Shown here piece after piece: positions 9,328-45,205 of a stretch of DNA of 64,000 nucleotides. Positions within the stretch are counted from its first letter, which is position 1. Every line of letters begins with the position of its first letter. The notes beneath the pieces are model-generated. The model ran no database searches. It had not been told where the DNA came from and saw only the letters and a program-made list of their open reading frames with translations. Both the position numbers and the translations under genes were made by a program. The stretch lies in IMG/VR virus record IMGVR_UViG_3300022934_000003; one strand, written 5' to 3'. Source of the DNA: a virus.

Positions 9328-10029
9328 CTAATTTTCTGTAATGTCAACTATTTCTTCAAATAAAATATTGTTTATATACTTATCTTTTAACTCTTCAGAA
9401 ATACCCATCTTTAAAATAGAATTGTGTAAGTGTGGATTTTTCTTTTGATTAATACAATATTTGTTTAAATGCTCGGTAGTATCTCTGTCTTCATCTGCTG
9501 CATGAGCAAACATATTATTTAAATAATAATCAGTTAATTCTTCAGTTACTTTAATAAATTGATCTAATTCTTCTCCAACTCTAATATTACCTACTGCAAT
9601 CATATCTTCTGAAAATATTTCTAAAGCCCAATCAGGTAATTCACGAGATCTTTTCCATTCTAATTTAGAAACAACTTCTTTCATATGTGTATTATATGGA
9701 TGATCATAACCATGCAATGGAGAATAATCCATAAAAGAACCTGTAATCTTATTTGGTCCTGCAACAATATCAAATCCTAAAATAGGTAGTTCAATACCAA
9801 CTTTTGGATAAATGTTAATATGCATTAACCAAAGCTTTTGTGTTTCTCTATTATCAATTATTTTAAGGTGCGCTTTACGAATAAAACAAGATTTCCAAAA
9901 TAAATCTTTCCAACCTTCAAACTTTAAATCATCGGTATATAGAGGATTATCAATTCTAGTCATATGACGATCAAAGGTTAACTCTAATCGTTTAGCATAC
10001 TTATCTAATTGTTCCCATAAATCGGACAT
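9328..10029 (-). CDS. ferredoxin-dependent bilin reductase (PcyX/PcyA-like)
   Basis: RKAHL, MHINIYP, LPILGFDIV, DYSP, RELPDWA..IFS, YCINQKKNPH; near a heme oxygenase. Confidence 0.88.
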   Translation of the reverse strand: MSDLWEQLDKYAKRLELTFDRHMTRIDNPLYTDDLKFEGWKDLFWKSCFIRKAHLKIIDNRETQKLWLMHINIYPKVGIELPILGFDIVAGPNKITGSFMDYSPLHGYDHPYNTHMKEVVSKLEWKRSRELPDWALEIFSEDMIAVGNIRVGEELDQFIKVTEELTDYYLNNMFAHAADEDRDTTEHLNKYCINQKKNPHLHNSILKMGISEELKDKYINNILFEEIVDITEN

Positions 10030-11127: not shown

Positions 11128-11700
11128 CTATTTTTTCATCATTTCTGACATTTCATCAAAAAGCTGTGATGCGAAATCAAAACAAACTTTTGCTTCATCT
11201 GCCATATCATCATTTAATAGTTTTCTAAATTCTGAAATAAGGACTTTTGTATCTCCATTAAATTCGTACATCATACCTGAACCTGGAGTTTTGTTTTTGA
11301 TAATTTGACCACCATGCAATTCACCAAAATGACGCACATACATATGTGCTAATAGTCTCTCATTATCATTTGCTATTTCATTAATATAACTTTCATATTG
11401 ATCTACTGAAGGTGGGAACTTTCCGTTTGGTGAAAATCCGTATTCTGATTCAAGCTCACGAATATCTTGAAAGATACGATCAGATCTACGAATTGGATAA
11501 AGATGTTCTGGAATTTTACAGTGTTTTTCTAATACTTGATAATTTAAAAATTGGCATTGTAAAAATTTATAATAGATTTCTGTATCGATTGAGCCACTAA
11601 TAAGTTCTTTTGCAAAAGCTCTTCGCTCTGCTGATTGATGATGAGCCCATGTAAGCTCTTTAAGTTTACTTTGTTGACCTTCCACATTGTGCATATTCAT
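11128..11700 (-). CDS. heme oxygenase (HemO/Ho1-like)
   Basis: LKELTWAHHQSAE (proximal His), LLAHMYVRHFGELHGGQII. Confidence 0.9.
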   Translation of the reverse strand: MNMHNVEGQQSKLKELTWAHHQSAERRAFAKELISGSIDTEIYYKFLQCQFLNYQVLEKHCKIPEHLYPIRRSDRIFQDIRELESEYGFSPNGKFPPSVDQYESYINEIANDNERLLAHMYVRHFGELHGGQIIKNKTPGSGMMYEFNGDTKVLISEFRKLLNDDMADEAKVCFDFASQLFDEMSEMMKK

Positions 11701-11712
11701 TCTCCTTTAATA

Positions 11713-12384
11713 TTATTTATTCCATCGCCATGTTAATCTTGGAGAAATTAAATCTTTCATTTCAAACTCACTCCATTTGGCTACTTCTTTTTGTATTTTT
11801 AAATGTTCGGGTGTCATTTTTGTAGTATCTGTATAACTCCAATCAATTTCTGTAGTTTTAAGACCATATTGGGCACCTAATAATTTTATATATTCTTCTG
11901 AATCATGTATAGATAATGTACCTGGCGCGATTCTATTACAGTGTGCTACAATAGTTCCATTATCTTTAATTAACTCAGACATTATTTCTGTTTGTTTTTC
12001 TCCATCATTAGATTGAAATTGATACACGCCAAAATTAAAAATCCAATCTGCAGATTTGGGTTTAAAATAATTTAATGCATTATGTATATCATCTACAATA
12101 TCTACTTTAGGATGAGGTGTAATATCTATTCCAATAAGATTATCTATGTAATCTTTAAATAAATTTCCACCACAACCAAAATCAATTACTAAATCTGGTT
12201 TACTTGCTTGAACTTCTAATGCTAAGTCCAATCCAGACTTTTGTCGATATAATGCTAATTCTCTTTTGCGAAATTCTTCCTCGCAATTATATCTAGCAAT
12301 AATCTTTTCTAATGTATCTAAATCTCTACTTTTAAGCAAATTATTCTCCAAATGTAATTTGTTTAAATCTAAATTTACTATCAA
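11713..12384 (-). CDS. class I SAM methyltransferase (paralog family)
   Basis: VIDFGCGGNLFK...NLIGID; C-terminus PRLTWRWNK. Confidence 0.75.
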   Translation of the reverse strand: MIVNLDLNKLHLENNLLKSRDLDTLEKIIARYNCEEEFRKRELALYRQKSGLDLALEVQASKPDLVIDFGCGGNLFKDYIDNLIGIDITPHPKVDIVDDIHNALNYFKPKSADWIFNFGVYQFQSNDGEKQTEIMSELIKDNGTIVAHCNRIAPGTLSIHDSEEYIKLLGAQYGLKTTEIDWSYTDTTKMTPEHLKIQKEVAKWSEFEMKDLISPRLTWRWNK

Positions 12385-12862
12385 TAACTAATTTAATTAT
12401 TTTAACAATATCATCAGTATGCATTTTTTCTTTATCTGGAAATCTTCCTTCTACTCTTGGTGTATCAATTAATCCTGGTTTAAGTATACAAGTATTAAAA
12501 CCAATATTATATAATTGAGCATTAGCATGTTCAAGTGCTGCTTTCCAAGTAGAATAAGGACGGATTTCTTGTTTTTCCCCGTCAGAACTAATAGATCCCA
12601 TATTAATTATTTTACCTTTAAAATTATTTTTAGCAAGAAAATGTAATAAATCTATTTGATAATTTTTTTCGTGTGCATTATTAATAACAACATCAAATTC
12701 TAATAATTTATTATACCATGTTTTATCAGAAATATCATGCTCGTTTTGTCTTGAAAACCCAATCGCTAATGCATCGGCTTCATTAAGATAAGCTTGATAT
12801 ATGGCTTTTCCAATTCCTTCTGTATGTCCAGTTATTGCTATTTTCATTATATTCTTTCCCAA
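12341..12862 (-). CDS. short-chain dehydrogenase/reductase
   Basis: ITGHTEGIG, INNA, NMGS, YSTWK, PGLIDT. Confidence 0.85.
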   Translation of the reverse strand: MGKNIMKIAITGHTEGIGKAIYQAYLNEADALAIGFSRQNEHDISDKTWYNKLLEFDVVINNAHEKNYQIDLLHFLAKNNFKGKIINMGSISSDGEKQEIRPYSTWKAALEHANAQLYNIGFNTCILKPGLIDTPRVEGRFPDKEKMHTDDIVKIIKLVIDSKFRFKQITFGE

Positions 12863-13215
12863 GTATGTTCGCTTGTCAATTTAAAACTTCCATGATGTTC
12901 CATATTCCATCTTTCTGGTTCAATCATACTTAAAAATAAACCATCATTACTCATATACAAATGATAAGTTCTACCAACAACTGGATTAAAACTAAATTTA
13001 GAATTATAAACCATTTCAGTATCTTCTGCTAGTTGAGATAATCTAAAGTATTCTTTTTTTAATTCTTCAAAATGCGTTGTTAATTGATTTCTTGCATTTG
13101 CTCCTCGCTCTCTTTTCTTTGTTAGAACTGCAGGAACAGTAAACGCTGGCGCGCCAACATTAGTTGGATATTGTGTTAATCCTGGTGCATCCACTACGTT
13201 ATCTGGCTTTTTCAT
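12847..13215 (-). CDS. DUF2452-like protein
   Basis: YPTNVGAPAF, FNPVVGRTYHLY, FLSMIEPERW. Confidence 0.65.
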   Translation of the reverse strand: MKKPDNVVDAPGLTQYPTNVGAPAFTVPAVLTKKRERGANARNQLTTHFEELKKEYFRLSQLAEDTEMVYNSKFSFNPVVGRTYHLYMSNDGLFLSMIEPERWNMEHHGSFKLTSEHTWERI

Positions 13216-13682
13216 ATATTTCCAACTAAATGTAAACGATTCCCCTCGTCATTTCTACCATTAAATGCAGTATGCTTTTGTCTTGTATCTACTTCATATA
13301 AACTTCCATCAGCGGGCATATGAAATACTAAATCTTCAAATGCAAATTTACATTTTCGATGTGTTATGATTGGAATATGATATCTAAATGTACGATCTTT
13401 ATGCCAAGAATAACAAGTATGAGGCTTTAATATTAGTAATCTCGTCCTATATATTTTGTTTTCTTCTAATATTGAATTAATATATGGAATATCAAATAAT
13501 GGATATTTAAATGAATCTTCTGGATATTTTAAATTTTCAATTTTTCCTAAACATTCATTATAATCAGAATCTGGATTTATACCTTGTAAGCACAATTCTT
13601 TTTCAAAATATGGAAGAGTTTCTATCTCTTCTTTTATTTTATTTAAATCGTATTTTTTTATTATTTTACAATACTTATTCAT
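13212..13682 (-). CDS. Asp/Asn beta-hydroxylase-like Fe(II)/2OG oxygenase
   Basis: RLL.LKP, WHKD, RYHIPIIT, HTAFNG...RLHLV. Confidence 0.75.
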   Translation of the reverse strand: MNKYCKIIKKYDLNKIKEEIETLPYFEKELCLQGINPDSDYNECLGKIENLKYPEDSFKYPLFDIPYINSILEENKIYRTRLLILKPHTCYSWHKDRTFRYHIPIITHRKCKFAFEDLVFHMPADGSLYEVDTRQKHTAFNGRNDEGNRLHLVGNI

Positions 13683-15193
13683 GAGTATGTTGTAAGAGAT
13701 TTATCTCTCTTAATTCCATAAATTAGAATCATTAATGCGAATATTAAGCAACCTGTCATTATAGGATGCATACTCCATATAGGATTATTTATGTAGTTTC
13801 CATCCATAAAATATAGTTGTTGTATTTGAAAGAATGAACCTTCAAGTCTCTCTGCTAAGAAATATGCAATTAAAAATGCCGGACGACTAAATTCATATTT
13901 CTTCATATAGTAACCAAGTATACTAAAGAATGTGAGTAATGTTAAATCCTCCCACCAAGTTACATAATAATTAGCCGCTAATACAGACCATATTGTTAAT
14001 CCTGCCATTACAGGAACCCAATAGATTGGTTTTAAATAAACTATTTTTGATACTTGTCTTGCAAATAATAAGAGTACAATACCAGCGATTGCAGTACCTA
14101 ACATGTATCCCCAGTATAAATGATCTATAAATTGCTGATCTTCTACTAAAGCAACCGTGCCCATTTCAAAGCCTACATACATGAAAAGAGCCATGATAAT
14201 TGCAACACCACGATTGCCTGGAATACCAAATAAGAATGCAGGAAGAAGTGCTCCAGCTTTACCGGAATTATTTGCACCCTCACTGCCAATTACACCTTTA
14301 ATATTACCTTTACCAAATGGAATTTTTTCTTTTTTAGAAATAGCAGTTGTTGCAGTATATGCAGACCAATCTCCTATTCCTCCACCAGTTCCGGGTAATA
14401 CACCTACAATAAAACCAATAAGTGAACCTTGAAATGCAATCCACCCATGTTTAAATGTATCTTTAATGCCCTGCCAAGTTTGTTGATTATGATGTTTCTT
14501 ATCAATCTTAGAATATTCATTTTTATTTCTTAGAACTTCTAATAATTCTGGCATTGCAAATAAACCGGCGGTGACAATAACTATTGATACGCCATCAACT
14601 AGATATTCCCATCCACCAGTCCATCTTGGAGTCGAGTACATATCATAACCAATTAATCCTACAAACAAACCAAATGCTAATGCAATTAAACAACGTATTG
14701 CATAGCGAGTAGTAATAAGAGTAATAAGTGAGAAGGATAAAACAATCATACCAAATATTTCTGGTACACTTATATAATCACTAATCAGATTGTACATTGG
14801 AAACAAAGAGAATCCAACAACTCCAAACAATAATCCACCAAGTGTAGAAGTGGTTATTGCTGCTGACAATGCGTATGATGCTTTACCTTGTTTCGCGAGA
14901 GGGAAACCATCTACCATTGTCGCTGCGGTTCCATCAGCTCCTGGGATGCCAATGAGTACCGAAGCAAATGAATCGCCAATAGAACACGATACCATTACTG
15001 CAATTGCAAATAATACAAATAAGTATTCTGCTCCAGGAATATCAAATAATTGAACTAATCCAAAGAGTAGTATTAATGCTTTTGCTGGACCAGCAGAAGG
15101 TATTAGACCAATAAGAGATCCATATAATACTCCTGCTGTAATAATGATACCCCACTGCAAATACAGTGGGAGCGAAATGAGTGATTCAATCAT
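13679..15193 (-). CDS. tctA: tripartite tricarboxylate transporter permease TctA
   Basis: GSLIGLIP, SVLIGIPG...AATMVDGFPLAKQG, GVLPGTGG, SEGANN, FGIPG; many TM helices. Confidence 0.9.
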   Translation of the reverse strand: MIESLISLPLYLQWGIIITAGVLYGSLIGLIPSAGPAKALILLFGLVQLFDIPGAEYLFVLFAIAVMVSCSIGDSFASVLIGIPGADGTAATMVDGFPLAKQGKASYALSAAITTSTLGGLLFGVVGFSLFPMYNLISDYISVPEIFGMIVLSFSLITLITTRYAIRCLIALAFGLFVGLIGYDMYSTPRWTGGWEYLVDGVSIVIVTAGLFAMPELLEVLRNKNEYSKIDKKHHNQQTWQGIKDTFKHGWIAFQGSLIGFIVGVLPGTGGGIGDWSAYTATTAISKKEKIPFGKGNIKGVIGSEGANNSGKAGALLPAFLFGIPGNRGVAIIMALFMYVGFEMGTVALVEDQQFIDHLYWGYMLGTAIAGIVLLLFARQVSKIVYLKPIYWVPVMAGLTIWSVLAANYYVTWWEDLTLLTFFSILGYYMKKYEFSRPAFLIAYFLAERLEGSFFQIQQLYFMDGNYINNPIWSMHPIMTGCLIFALMILIYGIKRDKSLTTYS

Positions 15194-16236
15194 TACTTCT
15201 TAACGTCGTATCTGAACCAGTCTTTAGCGATTTTTAATAGATTTTTAGAATTTTCTTCTGTTTTAATACTAGTAATATATTCAGAGTGTGTTGATGCGTC
15301 TTTAGCACCTAACCAAGGATAGTTACCAAGTTTCTTTTGAAGTCTTGCGACAGCATCTTTATCTTCTAACATTTTACTAATTGCTTTATTCATATCATCT
15401 TTATATGGATTATCTTTATGAGTAAAGATTGCTTTTTGCAATCCATCACGATATGCTTGATTTAAACGATAAGCGTCATATACTTCACCAGAAGGATCTA
15501 CGCCATATTGAAGTTTATATGCTTCTTCAAATGTTTGCTTACCTTTTTCGTTATTCGGATCACCGTATTTTCCATTCTTATCAACAATACCATGTGAATA
15601 CCAAACTACATGAGTACCTGCTTTATATTGTCTTTCAGAAGCAGCTAAAGCAGAAGCCATCGTATCACGACTACCTTGTAGTAACTGATCATTAAATGCT
15701 TTACGTCTCACACCACCTTTTTTGAAACCACCGACTAAACGCATTTTCTTATTAACACATTGTAGGAAAGTATCAACCTTTGCAGATTTTTCTGGACCAC
15801 ATTCCATCATACCAACTGAAATCCAATCAGGACCAAACCCAGATCCACCATCAAGTGGGAATGTCATTACACCTTTACGATTAGCAACTTTCGAAATCCA
15901 CATTGATGAGTTCATTACGACCATTGCATCATATTTTGCATAATCGAAATCACCAACATTTTCCAGTAGGAAAGCTTCTGCATTACCACCGTGTGTAATA
16001 AGTAGTGTTGATTTATCTGTCGAAGAATACGACTTTAAAGATTTTTTACCACGAGCACCTGATACAAATCTTGGTACTAAAGTGTGGTCAGTATAGTTTT
16101 GAAGTTCTTTTACAACTGTATCACCCCATAGAGTGGTACCTTGTGCTCCAGGTTTAGATGGATATTGAACTTCGATTGTTGCTGCAGAAGCAGCTGTTGC
16201 GAAACAAATCGCAAAAAGCGCGATTAATTTTTTCAT
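15193..16236 (-). CDS. TctC/Bug-like periplasmic substrate-binding protein
   Basis: Signal peptide, VQYPSKPGAQGT, FVSGARG; adjacent to tctA. Confidence 0.65.
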   Translation of the reverse strand: MKKLIALFAICFATAASAATIEVQYPSKPGAQGTTLWGDTVVKELQNYTDHTLVPRFVSGARGKKSLKSYSSTDKSTLLITHGGNAEAFLLENVGDFDYAKYDAMVVMNSSMWISKVANRKGVMTFPLDGGSGFGPDWISVGMMECGPEKSAKVDTFLQCVNKKMRLVGGFKKGGVRRKAFNDQLLQGSRDTMASALAASERQYKAGTHVVWYSHGIVDKNGKYGDPNNEKGKQTFEEAYKLQYGVDPSGEVYDAYRLNQAYRDGLQKAIFTHKDNPYKDDMNKAISKMLEDKDAVARLQKKLGNYPWLGAKDASTHSEYITSIKTEENSKNLLKIAKDWFRYDVKK

Positions 16237-16248
16237 TATTTACCTCAT

Positions 16249-16893
16249 TCATATTTTTGTTACACTTATATAAACATCATCATGCTTATTATATTCAAAT
16301 GTGATTGCTTTTGAATAATCATAACCTCGTATATCTCTAAATGATTCAACAGCATCAAATAGTTTCCATTCAAGCTTATGTTTCTTAGCAAACATATCTA
16401 TATATGCATCTTCTTCGATTAAAAGTTTTTGCATAGTTTCACGATCTTTATACATCTCAACATAAGATGGATACTTATCGTCTTCGAAACTCATAATTGA
16501 GTCCCACCATTTAAAAGATTCTATTGGATCTCTTTTTATAAGAACCATATAGTCACCTTTAAAATTGTCCCAGATAAAATCTAAATTATTATTTCTTGCG
16601 AGTGCATGTGATTTAATAACTCGATAGCCTTCACCTGTAAATTCTTTATTAATCTCATCGAGAATATTTTCTTTTCCAACATCTTTGAGGTTAGTCCAAG
16701 AATGACCGCATGTCATTCCCGGACCCCAGTAAATACCTCTATGACCGTTGAATTTGTATCCTCTATCATTTGCTTTGTGAAAGAAGATACGATCTTCGGT
16801 TTCGTCGGTTTGATCACAAGGTAGACAGTGTCGAATACATATATCTATTCCACTCCATCTACTGCCTGGAATCCCACAAAACCAAATATTCAT
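16249..16893 (-). CDS. sulfotransferase-like P-loop protein
   Basis: FCGIPGSRWSG, VIKSH, IKRDPIES; paralog of 18977..19660. Confidence 0.5.
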   Translation of the reverse strand: MNIWFCGIPGSRWSGIDICIRHCLPCDQTDETEDRIFFHKANDRGYKFNGHRGIYWGPGMTCGHSWTNLKDVGKENILDEINKEFTGEGYRVIKSHALARNNNLDFIWDNFKGDYMVLIKRDPIESFKWWDSIMSFEDDKYPSYVEMYKDRETMQKLLIEEDAYIDMFAKKHKLEWKLFDAVESFRDIRGYDYSKAITFEYNKHDDVYISVTKI

Positions 16894-16912
16894 AATATAT
16901 TATACCATAGTT

Positions 16913-17776
16913 TTAAGCGAAAGAGAAATTATTTATCGCAATTTCATCCGCTACGTCATGCTCCTTGAATTGACCTCTTGCAACTGGCTTCCAGTTAAAG
17001 CTAGCATCTCTAAGAGTTTGCCATACTTTACCTTTTTCTTTCATCTTCTCATCAGAAGTATCAAAGCCATAAACTGAAGCACATCTCTCGGCACCTTCTT
17101 TAACAGCTGCAGTACCTTGGCAATTAATCCAAAACATTCTTTCCATCATTTGTGGAAGTACAGCCATTACTTTAGCCTGAGCTTCTTCAGTTGTAGCAAG
17201 TTGTTCAATAGTTCTTGCTCCAATTCTTGAGTGCATATACTCATCTTTAGAAATCTTTGCATAAGTTTTAGAAACGATTGGATCATCGATTGATGTAGCC
17301 ATTGCATTCCATACTCTTGCTGCTCTACCTTCTGCAACAAATTGGTATACTGCAGCCATTAGTTCATCTTTGTGACCACCAATTTCTTCGAATAGAGAAG
17401 CACCTTTTTCAGATACTTTAGACTTATCCATTTGCCATGCATATTCTTGCTCTAGTTCTTGATCAGTAAACTTATGTCCTGATAGATATTCGATTACGTT
17501 ACGAACCATATCGTAATGTTTAGCTTCATCATAGACTTGCTTTGATAAAAGCTTAAGTGTAGTAGGATCAGTTGAAGCAGGCTTTTCAACTAGTGCTTTA
17601 CCAATCTCTACGATGTTCATTCTTTCATTAAACATTCTACGTTTAAAATGAAAAATTGCCTCGTCCAAATCTGGATCGTTACGGAAATATGTTTGAGTTT
17701 GCTCTTCAGATGATTTATACAAAGGCTCAATATAATCTGCAACTTTTTGGACAAATTCTTTACCGGTCATTGTCAT
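16913..17776 (-). CDS. ferritin-like di-iron carboxylate enzyme
   Basis: E...DEAKH...E...DEYMH di-iron ligand pattern. Confidence 0.7.
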   Translation of the reverse strand: MTMTGKEFVQKVADYIEPLYKSSEEQTQTYFRNDPDLDEAIFHFKRRMFNERMNIVEIGKALVEKPASTDPTTLKLLSKQVYDEAKHYDMVRNVIEYLSGHKFTDQELEQEYAWQMDKSKVSEKGASLFEEIGGHKDELMAAVYQFVAEGRAARVWNAMATSIDDPIVSKTYAKISKDEYMHSRIGARTIEQLATTEEAQAKVMAVLPQMMERMFWINCQGTAAVKEGAERCASVYGFDTSDEKMKEKGKVWQTLRDASFNWKPVARGQFKEHDVADEIAINNFSFA

Positions 17777-18332
17777 TTGTATTTACTCCTATATATTTTT
17801 TTATTTCGTCAGGTACCCAAAAATCTTCTTCTCTTTCTGGATGCCAAACAACGGCCATTACGTTACCTTTAATCCAAGATTCTATATGACCATCTTCATC
17901 TCTTACCAAAACTTCAGAATCTTCAGGTTCTTTAACTATAGTAGAACCATGATATGAATTTATTGTTCTACTAGTATATTTATATGTTATTTTATGTCTT
18001 GTTCTTCTATGACCTTCTATATCTATTAATTTGCCATCCATTAATTGAGTTAATAAAAAAGCTCCGTGGCAAATACCTAATATTGGTTTATTAAGTAATC
18101 TAAAATGTTTTAAAGCATCTATCTCAGTAATTATTCTTTGTGGTGTATCATTTCCACCTGATAAAACTAATAAATCATGCTCTTTTGCTAATTTTTTATA
18201 ACTATTTTTTCTATTTAATAAAGCAGTGATATCATGATCTCTAAACATTTGATAAAATCCATGTTCGATGGCATCAAATGTAAAGTCTGGATTTATTCCG
18301 GGTAGTATTGTACTAGAAATTAATACTTTCAT
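17760..18332 (-). CDS. class I glutamine amidotransferase (PuuD/C26-like)
   Basis: LSGGND, PILGICHG, NSYH, WHPE. Confidence 0.85.
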   Translation of the reverse strand: MKVLISSTILPGINPDFTFDAIEHGFYQMFRDHDITALLNRKNSYKKLAKEHDLLVLSGGNDTPQRIITEIDALKHFRLLNKPILGICHGAFLLTQLMDGKLIDIEGHRRTRHKITYKYTSRTINSYHGSTIVKEPEDSEVLVRDEDGHIESWIKGNVMAVVWHPEREEDFWVPDEIKKYIGVNTNDNDR

Positions 18333-18967
18333 TATAAACCGTTTTTAATAATTTCCCATGTTTTTTCCGTTGCTTCGCCTGTAATTTGCAATGCTGGTCT
18401 AGCAATCCAAGATGCGTTTGCAGTAGAATGAGGAGTAGTATTAAATTCCCAATGAAAGACTGTACCTTTTTTCCATTGAGTATAAGTTCTATTACCAAAC
18501 TGGGCCATTTGTCCAGGCTCCCAATCTGCAAGCATTACTAAGAATCTTACTCTATTATCTAAATGTTCTTTTGCATATACTTTTTCTTTATCTGGCATGT
18601 CTGGAAAATTATCTACATGTTCCATTAAAATATGACCAGGTAATTGATCATTGAATTTAAATTTTGTGTCACCAACTAAATGGAATAAATCAAAAATAAG
18701 ATGAAACTTTGGAAATTCTTCGAATGTTTTTAATTCAAGTTTACTAAACATTTTAGTATTAGCACCAACTTCATCTTTTAATTTTTCTTTAATCTCAGGA
18801 TAAACTTCATAAATTCCACGAGCACTATACCATTTTTCTTTTGGATTTTTACTTCTAGCTTTTGCGATTTCATCTTCTAAATCATAATCAAGCACACCAA
18901 GAATTTTAGAGTGTCGTCCTTCTGGATCTTCTTTCCACTTATCATAATGATATTTTTCTAATTGCAT
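18332..18967 (-). CDS. Fe(II)/2OG-oxygenase-like protein
   Basis: QLPG..LMEHVD...L.DW.PGQ...W..G...PHSTANAS...R..LQITG. Confidence 0.6.
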   Translation of the reverse strand: MQLEKYHYDKWKEDPEGRHSKILGVLDYDLEDEIAKARSKNPKEKWYSARGIYEVYPEIKEKLKDEVGANTKMFSKLELKTFEEFPKFHLIFDLFHLVGDTKFKFNDQLPGHILMEHVDNFPDMPDKEKVYAKEHLDNRVRFLVMLADWEPGQMAQFGNRTYTQWKKGTVFHWEFNTTPHSTANASWIARPALQITGEATEKTWEIIKNGL

Positions 18968-18976
18968 GCGTATTTC

Positions 18977-19660
18977 CTAAATATGTGTAATACTATTTAT
19001 TCCGCGATATAAAACAGGCCAAAGTGTTTTATCTTCTTCTTTTCTTAATTTATGATGATATGTTTTATTCTTTGGTAAATAATCTTTCCATTCAGGCCAA
19101 TTTTCATCTATCCAATCAGGCATATCCCAAAGATTATAATTCATTTGTAGATTATTTTCTTTAATGAATTTTTCCATACATTCATTCTCAATAAAGATTT
19201 GACGTCTCATATTTGATGTATTTCCATACCAATGATATTGTGGATATTGAATATCCCAACCACCAGATTCTAACCACCAATTTAATGACATTTGTGGTTC
19301 TCTCATCATCATTAATATATCAACTTCTGGTAAATTTTCTTTTATCCAATCTAATTGATAAGCAAACCAATGACATCTTACAAATCTAATTCCATCACCA
19401 TCAAATGCTCTATCAATTTCTTGCAATATAGCATCTCTCCCCATTAATGCTAATTGATCGAATCTTTCTCCATATTGATGATATGGTCCAAAGAATCTAT
19501 GATAATGTTCAGTACCATTACTTGGTGTATCTTGTAAATGAGGCATCCAACATGAATTATCAATTATATTAGAAGTTTCATTTCTTAAAATGTATTCAAG
19601 TCTTCCCCATCGAGATCCGGGTACACCTGTTATAAAAACTATTTTCTTTTCCATCGCCAT
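18977..19660 (-). CDS. sulfotransferase-like P-loop protein
   Basis: ITGVPGSRWG, VRCHWF, MREPQMS. Confidence 0.5.
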   Translation of the reverse strand: MAMEKKIVFITGVPGSRWGRLEYILRNETSNIIDNSCWMPHLQDTPSNGTEHYHRFFGPYHQYGERFDQLALMGRDAILQEIDRAFDGDGIRFVRCHWFAYQLDWIKENLPEVDILMMMREPQMSLNWWLESGGWDIQYPQYHWYGNTSNMRRQIFIENECMEKFIKENNLQMNYNLWDMPDWIDENWPEWKDYLPKNKTYHHKLRKEEDKTLWPVLYRGINSITHI

Positions 19661-20247
19661 ACAAATAATCTCATTATTGCTTCTTCATCTGCTTGTCCAG
19701 GAGCTCCGATTTTACCCGCAGCAGCCGTTTCTTCTATTGGTTCATGTATCCATTCAACTTTATCTTTATACTTTTCATATACCTGATAAACTTCATCTAA
19801 TGTCCAACCATGATGTCTAAATGCTTTTTGATTACGAACTATTTTTCTTTCACTTAATTGTCTTGCTCTTATAATTAATTTTCCACCAGGTTTTACTAAA
19901 TCAATCATAATACCAATTTGATTCATAATATTATCAAACTCACCAAAGTTAACTGAGCCTAATGCAATTACACAATCTGCACAACCGGGTTGAAATATAT
20001 TTGATGCTTCTTCGACAGACATTGTTAAATCTGACTCTGGATAATGTGCAACATCTAAACCAATTAAATTTTTTACATGTTCTTTATATGGATTAATACC
20101 ACAACCAACGTCAATAACTAATCCTTCTATTTCTTTTAATTCATCTACTAAATTCATATTAGTTTTTGAATGTGTTAAGAATTTTTCCTTTGTATATGGA
20201 AATTCTTCAAATTGTTGTTTTACTTGTTCTAACAATCGTCTATTCAT
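19639..20247 (-). CDS. class I SAM methyltransferase (paralog family)
   Basis: VIDVGCGINPYK..NLIGLD, VKPGG. Confidence 0.8.
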   Translation of the reverse strand: MNRRLLEQVKQQFEEFPYTKEKFLTHSKTNMNLVDELKEIEGLVIDVGCGINPYKEHVKNLIGLDVAHYPESDLTMSVEEASNIFQPGCADCVIALGSVNFGEFDNIMNQIGIMIDLVKPGGKLIIRARQLSERKIVRNQKAFRHHGWTLDEVYQVYEKYKDKVEWIHEPIEETAAAGKIGAPGQADEEAIMRLFVWRWKRK

Positions 20248-21121
20248 ATTTTTTCCACCACCAATTAAATCTAGGTCTTACACCATCAGGGAATGTAGGA
20301 TCATACCTATCGTCTTTTAATCTTCTGTATCTTTCATTATAACATACATGTCTAATGTGATCATAGGTTTCATATACTTCGGTAGGATCTAGCATTTCTG
20401 AATTATCAGTTTGACGATCTATCCATCTATTCCATTCGTCAACTGTTGTAGTTTCTGGAGTATATCTATCACAATAAGATTCTAATACCTCCCACGGTAC
20501 TTGTTTCATATCAGTAAATTCTGTAATAATATCCTGTTTTAAATCTGGTACAGAAGGATTAGGATCAAGTAATTCTAAATCTAATTCATTTGAGAATTGG
20601 CGAATAGCATCTCTTGTCCAAGGATAATGAATCATACCACGCTGCTGAAATTGTGTTTCATCTGATATTCTACCAGGTCTCGCGTGTGAGCATATTAACC
20701 CGCCTGGCTTTAATACGCGTTTGCATTCTAATATTAATTCTACTATCTCATCTTTTGTTCCAAAATTAAAAGGACCAACAGATCTAATAGCATCTACAGA
20801 ATTATCTTTAAAGCGTGGAAGGATATCCATTACATCACCAACAATATCAGCATTGCCATTATATGGTAATAAATCTATTCCGATTAAATTAGGAATATAT
20901 TGTTTCATCATATTATTACCACAACCAATATCAAGTACTAAACCTGGATTTAGTTTATTAATAACTCTTGCTGCAGTATAACCAGATCCAGTTTTTGCTG
21001 GACTTGTTACACGAATAATCTCTGCCCAATCTTGTGAGAAGTGATCTTTAAGTCTTTCTAATCTCCATTCACGTGGAGATTTACCAACTTCTATAGCGTC
21101 GTATCTTTTTCCCATATCCAA
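20240..21121 (-). CDS. class I SAM methyltransferase (paralog family)
   Basis: VLDIGCGNN, RVLKPGG. Confidence 0.82.
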   Translation of the reverse strand: MDMGKRYDAIEVGKSPREWRLERLKDHFSQDWAEIIRVTSPAKTGSGYTAARVINKLNPGLVLDIGCGNNMMKQYIPNLIGIDLLPYNGNADIVGDVMDILPRFKDNSVDAIRSVGPFNFGTKDEIVELILECKRVLKPGGLICSHARPGRISDETQFQQRGMIHYPWTRDAIRQFSNELDLELLDPNPSVPDLKQDIITEFTDMKQVPWEVLESYCDRYTPETTTVDEWNRWIDRQTDNSEMLDPTEVYETYDHIRHVCYNERYRRLKDDRYDPTFPDGVRPRFNWWWKKYE

Positions 21122-21804
21122 AATAACCTTTCTCTAATTCTGCCATTCACTACTTTATCTTTTATTTCAATATCATTTGGAACTAAACTTAAATCTGTAT
21201 AATCAATAATAGGTTCTTGATAATATTTTAATTTGTGTTCTTTTGTAAAAATGTGGGTTGTTTCAACAAACCAAGGATATAAATTTGCAGGTTTACCAAA
21301 CTCTGGATGATATAATTTTTCGGGATCGTCATCGTAAGGTTTACATAAACATGCTATATAACCACCTGGTTTAGTTAAATATTTTAATTGTTGAATCATT
21401 TTATGTATTGTTACTTCGTCATGATGATGTAATATTCCAATTGCTAATACCCAATCAAATGATTCTTTTTGAAATATATTACAAGCTCCTTCTAAATCTA
21501 TATTAATATCGGGATTACCCCAAGTTCCAGGTTCAATACCAATTAAGTTTTTGATTTTATTCTTAAATGGATTTACACCACATCCAACATCTAATACTAA
21601 AGCATCTTTACCAGAATTATGTCTTATATTTCTTAATAACCATTTTCCAGTATATTTTCTTGTATCATATGTAAATTGACCAATATAATCATCATAGCCA
21701 ACTTCATCTTTTTTATATCTATCTTGCCAGTCTTTTGTTCTTTCTTCTATTGGTTTATTCCACCAATTTGGTAATTCAACTTTGCCAGTAATATCAGTCG
21801 TCAT
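21091..21804 (-). CDS. class I SAM methyltransferase (paralog family)
   Basis: VLDVGCGVNPFK, SFDWV, TKPGG. Confidence 0.82.
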   Translation of the reverse strand: MTTDITGKVELPNWWNKPIEERTKDWQDRYKKDEVGYDDYIGQFTYDTRKYTGKWLLRNIRHNSGKDALVLDVGCGVNPFKNKIKNLIGIEPGTWGNPDINIDLEGACNIFQKESFDWVLAIGILHHHDEVTIHKMIQQLKYLTKPGGYIACLCKPYDDDPEKLYHPEFGKPANLYPWFVETTHIFTKEHKLKYYQEPIIDYTDLSLVPNDIEIKDKVVNGRIRERLFWIWEKDTTL

Positions 21805-22732
21805 AATTTATAGACTCGGTCATTTCATCGTAAAATTGTTTCATATCAATTTCTTTAACGATTTTCATTTTTCTTACATTAAATTTATCTGAGCCTTCAT
21901 TCTCTATAATATCTTTTACTTGGAACTTAGCTTGGAACAATTTATAATCTCCATAAGCACCGCATGATACCCATTCTTTTAGTACCCAATCCATAGAAGC
22001 AACTGCCATTCCAGTATTATGCTTTGGATGTAATGGAACATGTTTACCATCTTGGTTTTCAGCATCAAATGTTTTACCAACTTCGTATGTAATTTTTGGA
22101 TGATAGATTCCTCTACCATCTGCAGCAGTTAATTTATATCCAATGACCCATTCATTTGGTTCCATAAAATCATATTGTAATGCTGCATCATGAAAAAATC
22201 TAGGTGTATTTGTCCAATGAAAAGAAGTATTACGAGTAATCATACCACGCATTCTATTTTTATCAAAGAATGAACCTTGGAAATCTGATTTTCTTGCGTT
22301 TACTTTACGGAAATCATTTGCAATAAATGTAGAATCGGGAGCAATTAAATGTTGTAAATCTGCTCCAATGAAATTACAATCTTGAAGTGTAAGTTCTTTA
22401 GCCCAACATTCTGTCATATAACCTTCACGTAAATTACAATTTATAAATGTTGCACCATCTAATTGACATCTTTTAAAGATCGCAGATCTTAAACCAACTT
22501 TATAGAATGTAGCACCACGTAAATCAGATCCAGTAAAATCACAACCGTCCATTACTAATCCATCAAAGCTTACACCTCTAAAGTCTTGATTTCTAAAATC
22601 ACAATTCTTAAATTTGTATTTACCATCACCGGCTGTTCGGTCATGCTGAGTTGTTGTAAGATTTTCTCCTATTGCAATAATATCAAGTAAATCTTCATCA
22701 TATTTTAATTTTCCATTTCTTGTATAAATCAT
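21794..22732 (-). CDS. pentapeptide-repeat protein with C-terminal domain
   Basis: CDFRN-QDFRG-VSFDG...SDLRG-ATFYK repeats; C-terminal GYK...YEVGK domain. Confidence 0.85.
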   Translation of the reverse strand: MIYTRNGKLKYDEDLLDIIAIGENLTTTQHDRTAGDGKYKFKNCDFRNQDFRGVSFDGLVMDGCDFTGSDLRGATFYKVGLRSAIFKRCQLDGATFINCNLREGYMTECWAKELTLQDCNFIGADLQHLIAPDSTFIANDFRKVNARKSDFQGSFFDKNRMRGMITRNTSFHWTNTPRFFHDAALQYDFMEPNEWVIGYKLTAADGRGIYHPKITYEVGKTFDAENQDGKHVPLHPKHNTGMAVASMDWVLKEWVSCGAYGDYKLFQAKFQVKDIIENEGSDKFNVRKMKIVKEIDMKQFYDEMTESINYDD

Positions 22733-23514
22733 AATACTAACCTTACGTATTTGTTTTCTTCATAATCTTTATCACAGGTAAATCCAGCTGCTGTAAAAGC
22801 ATAAATAAATTTTTTACTCGGTAAACTCCAAACTTCTTTACAAAAATGTAATTTTGCTTGATTTATCACTTCTTCGAGTAATAATTTAGATAATCCCATT
22901 CCTCTATAATTGGGATCTACCCATAATCCTCGTGATCGATAATACATACCAGTAGCATAACCCGAGTTAACTCCAATAAGTTTATTATTATCATATAAAC
23001 CGAAAAAGTCTGGTTCGTCTGTTGCAGGAGGATAATTAGAATCTACATGCACTTTAAAAGAGTCTAAGCCAGGCCATAATTTATTATCCCATATTTCTTT
23101 TATTTCCTTAAAAGAAATTTCTTTTATTTTAAATTCATATCCTAATAATGTAGAAATAGGTGTATTATATTTTGGATTGACGAGCTTAGTTGTTGGTTTG
23201 ATTTGTTTTAATTGACCAAAGTTTTTAATAACTTCTATTGTATTTTCTATATCATTAGAAATAAATTTATCAATCACAAATAAATGTGTTACATTATTAA
23301 CCATATCTAAATGATCAGTACCTATTGCAATTACATCTAATTTATCTGTTTTTATTTGTTCCCAAATAAAATTTCGTACTTTTTCGTCTTTAGGCCAAGT
23401 ATAATCAGCAGTTACTATAATAGATTCTATATTATGAGGAAATATATTTTCTCTATAATAAGTTGCTGCTATATCATTCTTTAAAAAGATTACATTATTA
23501 ATATCAAGTTCCAC
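22729..23514 (-). CDS. GNAT acetyltransferase (C-terminal domain)
   Basis: RGLWVDPNYRGMGLSKLLL. Confidence 0.8.
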   Translation of the reverse strand: MELDINNVIFLKNDIAATYYRENIFPHNIESIIVTADYTWPKDEKVRNFIWEQIKTDKLDVIAIGTDHLDMVNNVTHLFVIDKFISNDIENTIEVIKNFGQLKQIKPTTKLVNPKYNTPISTLLGYEFKIKEISFKEIKEIWDNKLWPGLDSFKVHVDSNYPPATDEPDFFGLYDNNKLIGVNSGYATGMYYRSRGLWVDPNYRGMGLSKLLLEEVINQAKLHFCKEVWSLPSKKFIYAFTAAGFTCDKDYEENKYVRLVL

Positions 23515-24784
23515 GTATAGACATCCCAGTAATTCTATAATTCCAACTTATATCTGTATAAGATGAAAATAGTTTTGCAACATCGTGCATATTATTTTTC
23601 TTCTTTTTATATTTATAGGACAAATAGTGCCATTGTTTTACCAAATCTGGATCTGAAAATAAACTAAACCAAGTATTATCATAATCTTGAGATTCTCCCC
23701 ACAAACGATAAGATGCTATTTCAGTTCTATAAAATGCAAGCATTTTTTCATAAGGATCTTTATCTATCCTATTCCATTTTTCAGTAAAATAGTTTAATAT
23801 AAAATGATATCCAGCATTTTTTTCTACGTTTGAAATAATAGTAGAAGGAGTATTTTGAAAATGACTACTAGTTGCATTAGTAAAAATATTTACTAGATCT
23901 TCTATTTTTGGGTTATTTGTAGATGCTAAATAATTATGAGAGTATTTTACGATATCACCTACAATATATCCTCCTCCTACTTCACCAGACATTGCTATAT
24001 CGCCTTTATCTTTTACTGCATGTCTTTTAACAGAAAATTGGCCGGCATGCCAATGTGTATCTTCGCACCAATAAGTATCTTTCGAAAAATGTCTAGTGTT
24101 ATTAACATTAAGATATTCTATATTCCATCCTATATTCTCGTAATCTTTAGCAGCATTAATATCAATTAAGTTTTTTACATTATCACTATGTACTTTTACT
24201 AAGCGCGGATTAAATCCAAAATGTTTTAAAGCCATTGCAAGAAAAGCAGAATCTTTACCACCGCTAAACGATACTACTGGATCGAGATTATGAATATGAG
24301 AAAATATTCTCTCTAAACATTTTAAAGTTTTATTAGGATCTGGTTCAGAGATAGAATCTTCATTTAATAAATCCATATAACGAGATTGCTTTGTATTAAT
24401 ACAATAATGTTCAGGCATTATTTGTTCAATCTCATTATAGCGAGTTAATTCACCAACAGTAAATTGTTTTATTATATTTTTTTGTTCATGCCAAAGTTTA
24501 CAATCAGTTAATTGATCTGTATCTTTTATTAGATCTCTAAGGTTATCACTAATTTTATTTTTTGTATAGTAAAGATTTGTAGTTGCATAATGATCTACAC
24601 AACCTATCCAATAATCGTTATCGATATAAACATATGCAAATTGACCACGTATATCTTTTGGTGGATCTCTATTTTCTAATTTGTTATAAAGATCTTCGTG
24701 TGAATAATTTGAGTATCCATATATCCATAATTTGTTTTTAAAACAAGTAAATTGTCTCTTTGGATTTTTATTGAGAAATATCAT
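23504..24784 (-). CDS. asparagine-synthase-like PP-loop ATP pyrophosphatase
   Basis: RGQFAY...DHYATTNLYY (degenerate Ntn domain, no Cys1), VSFSGGKDS, MSGE. Confidence 0.7.
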   Translation of the reverse strand: MIFLNKNPKRQFTCFKNKLWIYGYSNYSHEDLYNKLENRDPPKDIRGQFAYVYIDNDYWIGCVDHYATTNLYYTKNKISDNLRDLIKDTDQLTDCKLWHEQKNIIKQFTVGELTRYNEIEQIMPEHYCINTKQSRYMDLLNEDSISEPDPNKTLKCLERIFSHIHNLDPVVSFSGGKDSAFLAMALKHFGFNPRLVKVHSDNVKNLIDINAAKDYENIGWNIEYLNVNNTRHFSKDTYWCEDTHWHAGQFSVKRHAVKDKGDIAMSGEVGGGYIVGDIVKYSHNYLASTNNPKIEDLVNIFTNATSSHFQNTPSTIISNVEKNAGYHFILNYFTEKWNRIDKDPYEKMLAFYRTEIASYRLWGESQDYDNTWFSLFSDPDLVKQWHYLSYKYKKKKNNMHDVAKLFSSYTDISWNYRITGMSIRGT

Positions 24785-24903
24785 TCGTAATATTTACCAG
24801 ACTTTTTCAATTCTTTTTTCTTATCTTTTACAACACGCATACGAAAAAGCGGTGTTCGAACCGCTTGTTTAATTTTATTTTTTATTGATTTAGTCTTTTT
24901 CAT
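24781..24903 (-). CDS. 40-aa basic peptide, ArfA-like
   Basis: Own translation MKKTKSIKNKIKQAVRTPLFRMRVVKDKKKELKKSGKYYE; ATGA overlap with the next gene. Confidence 0.55.
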   Translation of the reverse strand: MKKTKSIKNKIKQAVRTPLFRMRVVKDKKKELKKSGKYYE

Positions 24904-24908
24904 AGTTT

Positions 24909-24937
24909 ATTATATCATACAAAACAAGATATGTCAA
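24909..24937 (-). promoter_or_regulatory. sigma70-like early promoter heading the tailoring-enzyme operon
   Basis: TTGACA-N17-TATAAT. Confidence 0.7.
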
Positions 24938-26674
24938 CTATTTATCAAATACTAAGCTAAAATTTTTAGAAATAAGATGAACAATTGTTACATCTACCTC
25001 TCTCATTATTTGTTCGAACCTTCCTTTTGCAGTTTTAAAAGAAATGGAATTTGTATTAAATTCTGCTTTACTACCATAATATTGTTTAAAGTGGAAAGAT
25101 TCTGGTAATCTATAAATTAATACATCATTTTTTTGACATTTATATGAAAATATAGTTTCATTATCATAACCAAAAGAAGCTCTTATATTTTCTGGATAAA
25201 ATGAATATTCGTCTTCTTTAAGTTCCTTCATTGTTTTAATAATCTCATCTATATTACTAAAATAATCTAATTTATCCATACCATATCTTGATGCACAAAT
25301 AACACCTGTATTATATACATTATTATCTGGTTCTAAATTATCTTCATTTAATAGAGCATGAGCATTCCAATATTTTGCTTGTGGATTTCTAAAATCTTTT
25401 TGATAATGAGTAAAGTACGCCTGAGACTTATCATAAATGTGTAGTTTATGTTTATCATCATATTGACAACAAATAGCATAGTCTACTGGTACAGTATCAA
25501 ATATATCTCTGTGATTTCTAAACCAAACATCATAATCAATGTACATGACATAATCATACTCATAAGTAAGTTTATCAAGCAAATAAATTTTATATAAATT
25601 TATAGCATCATATTCTGATAAATCAGGAAATTTTTTTATAAAATTTTCGTATTTTTCATCCCTTGTAAATCTTAAATAAGTTGCATCAATTGCTTTTGCA
25701 TAATCTTTATGATTTTGAATTAATTCATTTTCATATTTTGCAAATTGTTCTTGTGCTATTTTACTTTTATTTTTTTCATTATCACGATAGCTTGGAGGAG
25801 CATCTAATTTATTATCGTCTATGTGAACATATAATGAAAAAATACATTTTGTTTTCTTATTAAAAAATGCATTGAATTGTTTATTAATATAATGTATACA
25901 ATGAGCATCAACTTTATCAGCAGGTCTATGATCATATATTTTATGCCATTTATCATCAAAAATTACATAAGGTATTTTATACTTTTCTAAAATATATGAA
26001 AAAATAGATTCATTATTTGCAAAATATAAATTTTCAAAAAATCGATTTAAATTTTCTTTTTTAATTTCTTGAATTTTTATAATGGCTTCTTTCATTCTTT
26101 CAATGAAATGAATTTTTTTAATATGCTCAGAGTTAGCTAGCATAATACCAGTATTAATTACATGATTATCTCCACCATCTAATAAATCTTTCGTAATATG
26201 GTATTTGAGAACAGGACTTCTTAAACCAACTTGATCTAAATTAAGAGCTTCTTTATTTTTAGAAACTATATCATAATCTTGATCTTTAATATGAATACCT
26301 TTTGATAAATCGTGCTCATCAAATATATTTAAATCTGTATTAAACACAACATCCATATCAACATACATAACTTCATCATATTCTTCAGCAAGTTGAGCAA
26401 ATAAATGGTGTTTATATAAATTTATTTTAGTAAACTCTAATTCAGTATCTACGTCAAATTCCTTCATTGTATTATGAAAGAATTTAAAATCTACATTAAT
26501 CTTTTTTGCATAGTCTTCTTTATTAGTTACTAATAAATCAAAATAATCTTTTGTAATTAATTCTTTAGCAACGCTAGCGTCTTTTTCAGCAGATAAATCT
26601 ATTTTACGCTTTCCTAAATATTTACGAGAATCAATTTTTATATCATCATATAATGTAAAAATAACTCTTTTCAT
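24938..26674 (-). CDS. tandem two-domain GT-A glycosyltransferase
   Basis: YDEVMYVDMD...NTG...NNESIFSY repeated as YDYVMYIDYD...NTG...DNETIFSY. Confidence 0.75.
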   Translation of the reverse strand: MKRVIFTLYDDIKIDSRKYLGKRKIDLSAEKDASVAKELITKDYFDLLVTNKEDYAKKINVDFKFFHNTMKEFDVDTELEFTKINLYKHHLFAQLAEEYDEVMYVDMDVVFNTDLNIFDEHDLSKGIHIKDQDYDIVSKNKEALNLDQVGLRSPVLKYHITKDLLDGGDNHVINTGIMLANSEHIKKIHFIERMKEAIIKIQEIKKENLNRFFENLYFANNESIFSYILEKYKIPYVIFDDKWHKIYDHRPADKVDAHCIHYINKQFNAFFNKKTKCIFSLYVHIDDNKLDAPPSYRDNEKNKSKIAQEQFAKYENELIQNHKDYAKAIDATYLRFTRDEKYENFIKKFPDLSEYDAINLYKIYLLDKLTYEYDYVMYIDYDVWFRNHRDIFDTVPVDYAICCQYDDKHKLHIYDKSQAYFTHYQKDFRNPQAKYWNAHALLNEDNLEPDNNVYNTGVICASRYGMDKLDYFSNIDEIIKTMKELKEDEYSFYPENIRASFGYDNETIFSYKCQKNDVLIYRLPESFHFKQYYGSKAEFNTNSISFKTAKGRFEQIMREVDVTIVHLISKNFSLVFDK

Positions 26675-43839: not shown

Positions 43840-43916
43840 TGGTGGGCCCACTAGGATTTGAACCTAGGACCAATGGATTATGAGTCCACTGCTCTAACCA
43901 ACTGAGCTATAGGCCC
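43840..43916 (-). tRNA. tRNA-CAU, most likely tRNA-Ile2 (Met not excluded)
   Basis: GGGCCTATAGCTCAGTTGG...GTGGA-CT-CAT-AA-TCCAT...GGTTCAAATCC...CCA. Confidence 0.9.
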
Positions 43917-43925
43917 AACTTAATT

Positions 43926-44801: not shown

Positions 44802-44823
44802 AATATAATCTATATTTTTTTTA

Positions 44824-45099: not shown

Positions 45100-45125
45100 T
45101 TTTATTCCTACTTTTATAATTAAAC

Positions 45126-45201: not shown

Positions 45202-45205
45202 AATT

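Follow-up and report, generated by a model that had tools for sequence, protein, structure and literature searches.

The stretch of DNA considered here, 64,000 nucleotides of the IMG/VR virus record IMGVR_UViG_3300022934_000003 (the whole of it is referred to as the window), carries on its minus strand a 13-kb cluster of closely packed genes between positions 11,713 and 24,937, which combine enzymes of a tailoring type with components of an uptake system. By PHROG matches (gp43-type DNA polymerase, topoisomerase II subunits, gp46/47, gp41 helicase, UvsW-like helicase), the window belongs to a T4-like myophage; its G+C content is ~31%, and no cultured phage has a DNA polymerase more than 44.5% identical to its own, the nearest being those of cyanomyophages. 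Megablast of the 13-kb cluster against GenBank phages returned no match. An earlier examination of the letters alone, made without database searches (the sequence-only reading), had described one sigma70 promoter heading about 18 abutting or overlapping minus-strand genes, and this layout holds. The promoter at 24937-24909 lies immediately after the stop of the upstream gene and the next site matching the consensus at 12 of 12 positions on the minus strand is found at 11127-11099, just past the heme oxygenase gene hemO; between both promoters (24903 to 11128) lie 19 minus-strand open reading frames (ORFs), of which hemO is the last. Within this 19-gene unit, intergenic gaps reach 19 nt at most, and the majority of adjacent genes overlap, by 1-44 nt. 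Consensus promoters of this type are early promoters in T4-type phages; the T4 late-promoter motif TATAAATA is about as frequent as chance would give and, within the cluster, is met inside genes only. Gene identities were assigned with Pfam, NCBIfam, PHROG, motifs, BLAST family membership and predicted-structure comparison, and nearly all of the initial gene calls were borne out by hidden Markov models, motif or fold. Tentatively, we read the region as an operon expressed early, at whose centre stands a mobile import-and-tailor cassette that is almost confined to viruses. The features of the unit are as follows:

24909-24937, minus strand: early-type sigma70 promoter (TTGACA-17-TGnTATAAT, 12/12 match, extended TG)
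24781-24903, minus strand: 40-amino-acid (aa) basic ORF, weakly ArfA-like (Pfam ArfA 7e-4), with an internal hairpin and T-run
23504-24784, minus strand: AsnB-like PP-loop adenylating enzyme, clade-specific accessory (SGGKDS motif; weak WbuX/AsnB/DUF7411 matches)
22729-23514, minus strand: GNAT acetyltransferase in the C-terminal half (Pfam 5e-8), N-terminal half without assignment, clade-specific accessory
21794-22732, minus strand: pentapeptide-repeat protein (Pfam 4e-17) with an unassigned C-terminal domain, accessory
21091-21804, minus strand: cassette-family S-adenosylmethionine (SAM) methyltransferase, paralog 1 (Pfam; DxGCG, D99 and D117 conserved)
20240-21121, minus strand: cassette-family SAM methyltransferase, paralog 2 (Pfam Methyltransf_11 1e-8)
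19639-20247, minus strand: cassette-family SAM methyltransferase, paralog 3 (no Pfam match; family membership by BLAST)
18977-19660, minus strand: sulfotransferase-fold protein, paralog A (GxPGSRW motif)
18332-18967, minus strand: Fe(II)/2-oxoglutarate (2OG)-oxygenase-like protein (H117-x-D119 ... H180 ... R190)
17760-18332, minus strand: stand-alone class-I glutamine amidotransferase (GATase; Pfam 2e-13, intact Cys-His-Glu triad)
16913-17776, minus strand: di-iron carboxylate enzyme, signature gene of the cassette (E / ExxH / E / ExxH pattern)
16249-16893, minus strand: sulfotransferase-fold protein, paralog B, the modelled one (predicted local distance difference test score, pLDDT, 93.8; TPST1 Z 10.4)
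15193-16236, minus strand: divergent TctC-family periplasmic binding protein (signal peptide; profile comparison)
13679-15193, minus strand: TctA membrane permease (Pfam 4e-84; ~11 hydrophobic segments)
13212-13682, minus strand: Asp/Arg-beta-hydroxylase-like cupin, recurrent accessory (Pfam 8e-5)
12847-13215, minus strand: DUF2452 protein (Pfam 2e-7; no link to the cassette found)
12341-12862, minus strand: shortened short-chain dehydrogenase/reductase (SDR; 6e-7; TGxxxGIG and YxxxK kept)
11713-12384, minus strand: cassette-family SAM methyltransferase, paralog 4 (family membership by BLAST)
11128-11700, minus strand: heme oxygenase hemO, last gene of the unit, outside the cassette (Pfam 2e-19)

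The di-iron protein was used as the handle for finding related loci, through exact-protein look-ups and a profile scan. An identical protein is present on a 216,746-bp contig; the look-ups also led to contigs at 78%, 68%, 64%, 60% and ~42% identity, and the profile scan revealed relatives on 370 IMG/VR contigs, the longest of 329 kb. ORFs were called and clustered in 91 loci, and co-occurrence was counted over 38 non-redundant loci that extend 8 kb or more to either side. The GATase accompanies the di-iron gene in 35 of these 38 loci, the two forming the near-invariant pair of the cassette, followed by a cassette methyltransferase (30/38), a sulfotransferase-like protein of either of two families, ST or f4 (29/38), an Fe/2OG oxygenase or Cupin_2 protein (26/38), a TctC-like protein (19/38) and TctA (7/38). 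Core co-occurrence thus stands at 68-92% across di-iron clades that are only ~40% identical, and the methyltransferase family is present in 73 of the 91 loci. A compact version (L027) consists of methyltransferase, di-iron, GATase, TctA, TctC, sulfotransferase-like and oxygenase genes. The surroundings differ from phage to phage: the cassette occupies the PhoH-endolysin interval in many, lies near MoxR/VWA in others and precedes hemO here, and PhoH adjoins it in 18 of the 38 loci; local gene order is kept while the whole set moves between contexts. Because the companions co-occur, compact forms exist, neighbourhoods differ and sulfotransferase-like/methyltransferase fusions occur, the core is a functional unit and not a chance gathering. 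Random combinations of these genes across related phages, which would have spoken for a mere hotspot, are not seen for the core, which recurs together in many divergent phage contigs. The initial picture of one 18-gene pathway is retained for this core but not for the remainder, the PP-loop, GNAT and pentapeptide genes being clade-specific and DUF2452 and hemO unlinked. The TctA-TctC-sulfotransferase-like-diiron-GATase combination recurs in IMG/VR phages, with TctA in the minority of loci given above. A di-iron profile scan of one genome each of 185,579 prokaryote species (of the core families, the di-iron family alone was searched there) gave one match, a 17.7-kb contig (L090, CALCPD010000071.1) in a Nitrosopumilaceae metagenome-assembled genome that carries cupin, f4, di-iron and GATase genes. 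Neighbours of its di-iron gene match PHROG families, and it is probably a mis-binned viral contig. Searching 50,697 GenBank phage records for the di-iron family by tblastn yielded no match.

In the di-iron enzyme, E51, E84-x-x-H87, E149 and E179-x-x-H182 are invariant across relatives; in the predicted model (pLDDT 90.6), these ligands sit on four consecutive long helices (residues 37-63, 71-99, 138-162 and 166-193). The model resembles TenA/CADD/HrmI/UndA-type heme-oxygenase-like proteins at Z 13-15.6 (TenA and CADD at 15.5-15.6) and ferritin-like proteins at Z 13-15 (ADO-like 15.0, PaaC 13.1). These fold neighbours, like those of the sulfotransferase-like protein, came from VIA-align; Foldseek searches of the PDB with both models gave no match at E <= 1e-3, and the di-iron profile compared with PDB sequences gave nothing usable (PaaA at E 0.7). 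The E/ExxH/E/ExxH ligands and the helical bundle (Z 13-15.6) are shared with PaaA, aldehyde-deformylating oxygenase, UndA, CADD, HrmI, BesC and AetD. The phage enzyme differs from these known di-iron helical-bundle oxygenases in its identity of at most 15% and in its stand-alone GATase partner, found in 92% of loci; we know of no described system that matches this pairing. The di-iron gene is tandemly duplicated in several phages (L005, L006/7, L014, L065 and L082), the paralogs being ~40% identical.

The partner GATase keeps its Cys88/His164/Glu166 triad in 62 of 62 relatives. Its best curated NCBIfam family, both for the window phage (6e-14) and for a ~35%-identical member (1e-14), is the gamma-glutamyl-CDP-amidate hydrolase (Cj1417-type), with the second-best family six orders of magnitude behind; the scores of 52.5 and 55 bits lie below the Cj1417-equivalog cut-off of 250, so that this is the nearest subfamily only. 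This conserved enzyme seems closer to a gamma-glutamyl-amide hydrolase. The Campylobacter O-methyl-phosphoramidate capsule pathway has been described (PMC11800397), and its Campylobacter jejuni enzymes Cj1415-Cj1418 (with Cj1419-1422) offer a comparison: the cassette GATase fits the Cj1417-type model best in two divergent members, and some cassette loci recall Cj1415 and Cj1416 through a fusion of adenosine-5'-phosphosulfate (APS)-kinase-like and nucleotidyltransferase domains, along with methyltransferases and group-transfer enzymes. By contrast, the cassette reaches only 52-55 bits where the cut-off is 250, a glutamine kinase was not found, the kinase/nucleotidyltransferase gene is missing from the window, and the di-iron enzyme and Fe/2OG oxygenase have no counterpart in the C. 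jejuni pathway. A full O-methyl-phosphoramidate pathway was rejected, the window having the hydrolase-like GATase only. The second iron protein of the core, encoded at 18332-18967, displays the HxD...H facial triad and the 2OG-binding Arg of Fe(II)/2OG oxygenases, to which it is accordingly assigned as a putative member: H117, D119 and H180 are present in 47 of 47 relatives and R190 in 46 of 47. It weakly matches the TauD-family alkylsulfatase AtsK (E 0.038).

The two sulfotransferase-like paralogs (18977-19660 and 16249-16893) share a GxPGS[R/K]W motif and have no Pfam, NCBIfam or PDB sequence match. At the level of the fold, the AlphaFold2 model of paralog B bears out the sulfotransferase-like assignment: it aligns with TPST1 at a VIA-align Z of 10.4 (root-mean-square deviation 3.3 over 168 residues), followed by TPST2 (9.8), an olefin-synthase sulfotransferase domain (9.2), Stf9 (8.8) and NDST (8.2), and its top nine matches are all sulfotransferases, with P-loop kinases at Z 8.1 or below. 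In comparison with sulfotransferases that depend on 3'-phosphoadenosine-5'-phosphosulfate (PAPS), such as TPST1/2, the CurM/OLS domains, Stf0/1/9 and NDST, the predicted phage proteins have the same fold (Z 8.1-10.4 over ~160-170 residues), an N-terminal strand-loop-helix at the position of the 5'-phosphosulfate-binding (5'-PSB) loop, a His after the central strand and an Arg...Ser after the next. They differ from them in the lack of any sequence match, in a PGS[R/K]W instead of a P[K/R]SGTT loop and in their small size (~210 aa). His96, Arg121 and Ser126, which are conserved, would suit the family without being typical of it, and the same holds for the PGS[R/K]W loop. In a library of 1.84 billion proteins, several sulfotransferase-like proteins are fused to a methyltransferase domain. 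Adjoining sulfotransferase-like genes in other loci (L020:14116-14994; also L022, L023, L050, L081 and L085) is a gene for a 292-aa fusion of an APS-kinase-like and an HxGH nucleotidyltransferase domain, with the motifs GLPGSGKTT, ICDFVAP and GRWQPWHDGH; its layout is PAPS-synthase-like in miniature, and it could supply the donor nucleotide. The four methyltransferase paralogs of the window share a DxGCG motif and a C-terminal Trp-rich tail, two being recognised by Pfam and two by BLAST. Their closest solved relatives, phosphoethanolamine N-methyltransferase (3e-7), sterol C-methyltransferase and ToxA, act on small molecules.

The transport components are of unequal clarity. TctA covers positions 3-422 of the 423 of its Pfam profile (4e-84) and has ~11 hydrophobic segments. 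The product of 15193-16236 has no Pfam match, and a three-sequence profile compared with the PDB gave nothing usable; it aligns with a phage TctC by hhalign (97.6%), and a 12-sequence profile matches BugE, AdpC and MatC as well as BugD, the last at 1e-3 along two co-linear stretches, four of its five PDB matches being Bug/TctC proteins. It is a divergent, secreted TctC-family binding protein with a signal peptide. The divergent TctC type adjoins TctA in each of ~9 TctA loci with inspected gene maps, and both families co-occur in 14 of 15 TctA loci; a canonical TctC (Pfam 9e-20) is found without TctA in other phages. TctA as a single query against IMG/VR retrieved no relatives, and its tblastn search of GenBank phages gave only ~25% identical matches, on fragments or prophage-like records. 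The pair resembles TctABC/Bug systems in having a clear TctA with a remote TctC/Bug relative in the usual position beside it; it is unlike them in being virus-encoded, lacking a detected TctB, having a binding protein too divergent for Pfam TctC, and being embedded in an enzyme cassette. A further parallel is offered by cyanophage PstS and the islands of pelagimyophages, where a phage periplasmic binding protein, an early-type promoter and a plastic region of a marine T4-like genome are likewise met. Unlike uptake genes of the PstS type, the uptake component is tied here to a permease and a multi-enzyme tailoring set, and unlike island-specific pelagimyophage content, that set is conserved across many phage lineages. 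One locus carries in the same cluster a second, divergent TctA paralog (L003:1724-3055; 443 aa, 25% identical) beside an uncharacterised 411-aa protein. In 14 loci without TctA (L026:10758-10988 and 13 others), the di-iron and GATase genes are separated by a conserved gene for a membrane protein of 76-86 aa with three hydrophobic helices (Pfam DUF6552, 6e-11), which may serve transport or anchoring in another way. This small ORF had been considered as a precursor or carrier and was rejected as such, being a DUF6552 membrane protein.

Around the core, gene content varies. PP-loop and GNAT homologues occur in L001-L004 only and the pentapeptide gene in five loci, including L013. The PP-loop protein starts MIFL, without the Cys2 glutaminase nucleophile, and has an asn_synth_AEB match of 5.6e-4. 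The cupin, the SDR and a methyltransferase resembling the upstream one at 26671-27366 recur beside the cassette in the distant L036, and the cupin also has relatives in L008-L013 (family f57). The SDR (173 aa) is missing ~60 residues of the usual central region; as its homologue in L036 has 176 aa, the short form is conserved. No homologue of DUF2452 was found in 90 loci, and neither it nor hemO recurs with the core. In the sister variant L008-L013, the place of the transporter is taken by other genes on the flanks of the core: one or two for flavin Trp-halogenases, several for radical-SAM/SPASM enzymes, a nucleoside-phosphorylase-like and an arginine-deiminase-like one. The 40-aa ORF contains a terminator-like hairpin at 24866-24847; in the nearest relatives, at 78% di-iron identity (L001:408-745 and L002:5866-6203), a permuted two-piece transfer-messenger RNA (tmRNA) with the tag ANDNFAPEMRLAA lies directly upstream of the PP-loop gene. 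The slot of the 40-aa ORF in the window is the tmRNA slot in L001/L002, which suggests two different ribosome-rescue elements at one position; the ORF is probably a ribosome-rescue or leader element and not a pathway enzyme. As a precursor peptide it was rejected, since it is not conserved and is replaced by the tmRNA in L001/L002. Permuted tmRNA is an alphaproteobacterial trait and would hint at the host.

Taken with the reserve due to a tentative proposal, the best reading of the cassette is the import and tailoring of a small molecule. The phage binding protein and permease would be placed in the host envelope early in infection, importing a carboxylate-type, possibly sulfonate, compound. 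The two iron enzymes, as oxygenases, would hydroxylate or oxidise it; the GATase-type enzyme would cleave or install a gamma-glutamyl or amide nitrogen, the sulfotransferase-fold enzymes would add sulfate to it, or a comparable group with a 3'-phospho-nucleotide as donor, and the four methyltransferase paralogs would methylate the compound. In this lineage, the AsnB-like enzyme, the GNAT and the pentapeptide protein enlarge the cassette; they may extend the route by an amide or acetyl step, or shield the phage or the host from the product. The enzymes of the set are co-inherited and keep their catalytic motifs; the order of chemical events is one that we infer. A small-molecule substrate is favoured because of the uptake components, the relatives of the methyltransferases and the tailoring-type variation between clades. 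Of the chemistry first proposed, import, hydroxylation, methylation and possible sulfation are compatible with the folds and motifs, whereas amidation rests on the clade-specific PP-loop protein. A bolder version, in which a virus-exclusive pathway with its own transporter makes a sulfated, methylated metabolite early in infection, with the pentapeptide and GNAT proteins as self-protection, is doubtful; such a metabolite might serve as a signal, act as a toxin against competitors or manipulate the host.

Several points weigh against import and tailoring of a small molecule. Every chemical step is drawn from fold or family. The di-iron fold is ambiguous between a heme-oxygenase-like and a ferritin-like bundle in the model. 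The sulfotransferase assignment relies on a modelled Z only ~2 above that of P-loop kinases, because Foldseek was without a significant match and PDB sequence searches were empty, and the PSB-like PGS[R/K]W loop is atypical. No PAPS-synthesis gene was found in the window. Neither was TctB, no small hydrophobic ORF lying beside TctA or TctC in the window; of the tripartite tricarboxylate transporter originally proposed as the phage's own, TctA and the divergent TctC are confirmed but this third subunit is not, and a host TctB or a TctB-free mode is possible. The periphery is variable, the PP-loop, GNAT and pentapeptide genes occurring in few loci and halogenases and radical-SAM genes replacing them in sister clades. 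The target could also be a macromolecule, such as an envelope glycan or a protein tyrosine.

Other explanations of the cassette compete with this one. It is unlikely that it remodels the host envelope, decorating the lipopolysaccharide or capsule of the infected cell by sulfation, methylation or otherwise, for instance against superinfection. In its favour, the capsule pathway of Campylobacter to O-methyl-phosphoramidate supplies the best curated family for the GATase, and the PP-loop protein has a weak match to the N-acetyl-sugar amidotransferase WbuX. Glycans are acceptors for many sulfotransferases (NDST and Stf-type proteins being among the fold matches), a radical-SAM gene lies upstream of the operon, and for the glycosyltransferase-rich islands of pelagimyophages a role in changing the surface of the host has been put forward (PMC7029224). 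Yet in most other phages the cassette has no glycosyltransferase neighbours, a dedicated uptake binding protein and permease are hard to reconcile with a glycan target, and small molecules are the substrates of the solved proteins nearest to the methyltransferases; the cluster proteins scanned with NCBIfam matched neither a glutamine kinase nor a cytidylyltransferase nor a CDP-amidate kinase, and an f38-type kinase/nucleotidyltransferase gene is absent from the window. Uptake could also serve nutrition, through a module importing and degrading a dissolved organic compound, for instance a gamma-glutamyl, sulfonate or sulfate-ester one, as a source of nitrogen, sulfur or carbon for the replicating phage, in parallel to the logic of phage PstS; the early-type promoter, the PhoH gene that adjoins the cassette in the 18 loci counted above, the weak AtsK match and a GATase of a type typical of gamma-glutamyl-amide hydrolases would all agree with it. 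Scavenging is nevertheless improbable, as up to four methyltransferases, two or three sulfotransferase-fold enzymes and the flavin halogenases of sister clades are tailoring and not catabolic enzymes, and the PAPS-synthase-like gene of some loci points to group transfer and not release.

Peptide or protein modification would involve tyrosine sulfation, with the AsnB-like, radical-SAM/SPASM and halogenase enzymes as tailoring of the type seen for ribosomally synthesized and post-translationally modified peptides (RiPPs). It draws on the top three fold matches, which are tyrosylprotein sulfotransferases, on the radical-SAM/SPASM and Trp-halogenase genes that flank the core in L008-L013, on the 40-aa ORF heading the operon and on an AsnB-like enzyme without the glutaminase nucleophile, a feature also of lasso cyclases. 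This explanation is very improbable: the 40-aa ORF is not conserved and gives way to tmRNA in L001/L002, no conserved precursor-like ORF was found (the small ORF of the di-iron/GATase interval being the DUF6552 membrane protein), no RiPP protease or recognition element was detected, and the uptake system is left unexplained. A plain hotspot of auxiliary metabolic genes, with unrelated host-derived genes gathered in a plastic region without a shared pathway, can be given slightly less credence still. The periphery does vary, with DUF2452 and hemO unlinked and the PP-loop, GNAT and pentapeptide genes in few loci, and T4-like genomes have hypervariable regions (PMC7029224). For the core, such a gathering is largely refuted by its co-occurrence of 68-92%, its local order kept while the set moves between contexts and the sulfotransferase-methyltransferase fusions; recent pick-up from a host is contradicted for the di-iron enzyme, the one core family searched in cellular genomes, by its single match there. 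Finally, amidotransferases and PP-loop enzymes are used by phages for base hypermodification, and a dCMP deaminase gene lies near the cassette in L006, which would accord with hypermodification of phage DNA or tRNA. That the cassette serves this end is highly implausible: the cluster genes yielded neither a transglycosylase or hydroxymethylase nor a base kinase or DNA-binding enzyme, the periplasmic binding protein and permease do not fit, and the methyltransferase family is not closest to DNA/RNA methyltransferases. A DNA-hypermodification system was rejected as a candidate, no matching enzymes being found.

Outside the 19-gene unit, the promoter at 11127-11099 heads the next minus-strand unit, which includes two 63-aa ORFs and the bilin-reductase gene at 9328-10029. 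Upstream of the operon promoter, a 578-aa gene at 24938-26674 has two DxD-like segments and an internally duplicated look; its product, at most a candidate glycosyltransferase, has no Pfam, PHROG or NCBIfam match. Three phage tRNA genes (Met-CAT, Cys-GCA and Arg-TCT) are located on the minus strand at 43840-45283 of the window.

In the literature, tctA in viral contigs is reported only as a domain match with its role unassigned (PMC4164917, PMC6359870), the role of phage sulfotransferases has been called unclear (PMC10580990), and glycosyltransferase-rich islands are known from pelagimyophages (PMC7029224). Literature searches found no published description of the cassette, in agreement with the initial statement that it matches no described pathway. 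Set in a small format of 7-9 genes, it is kept together across hundreds of uncultured aquatic phage contigs, some of them up to 329 kb, whereas no cultured phage on record carries it. As a rule, phages borrow their auxiliary genes singly from hosts; the cassette differs from these in being a multi-enzyme set with its own uptake component and a signature enzyme that has almost no cellular homologues. If the cassette does make or remodel a metabolite, it would stand for unknown chemistry in a great many infected bacteria of aquatic habitats, its di-iron/GATase pair would form a new class of paired enzymes, and compact enzymes of the sulfotransferase-like kind could be drawn from it; should the pathway prove virus-exclusive, it would constitute a phage-borne secondary-metabolite system without a cellular counterpart.

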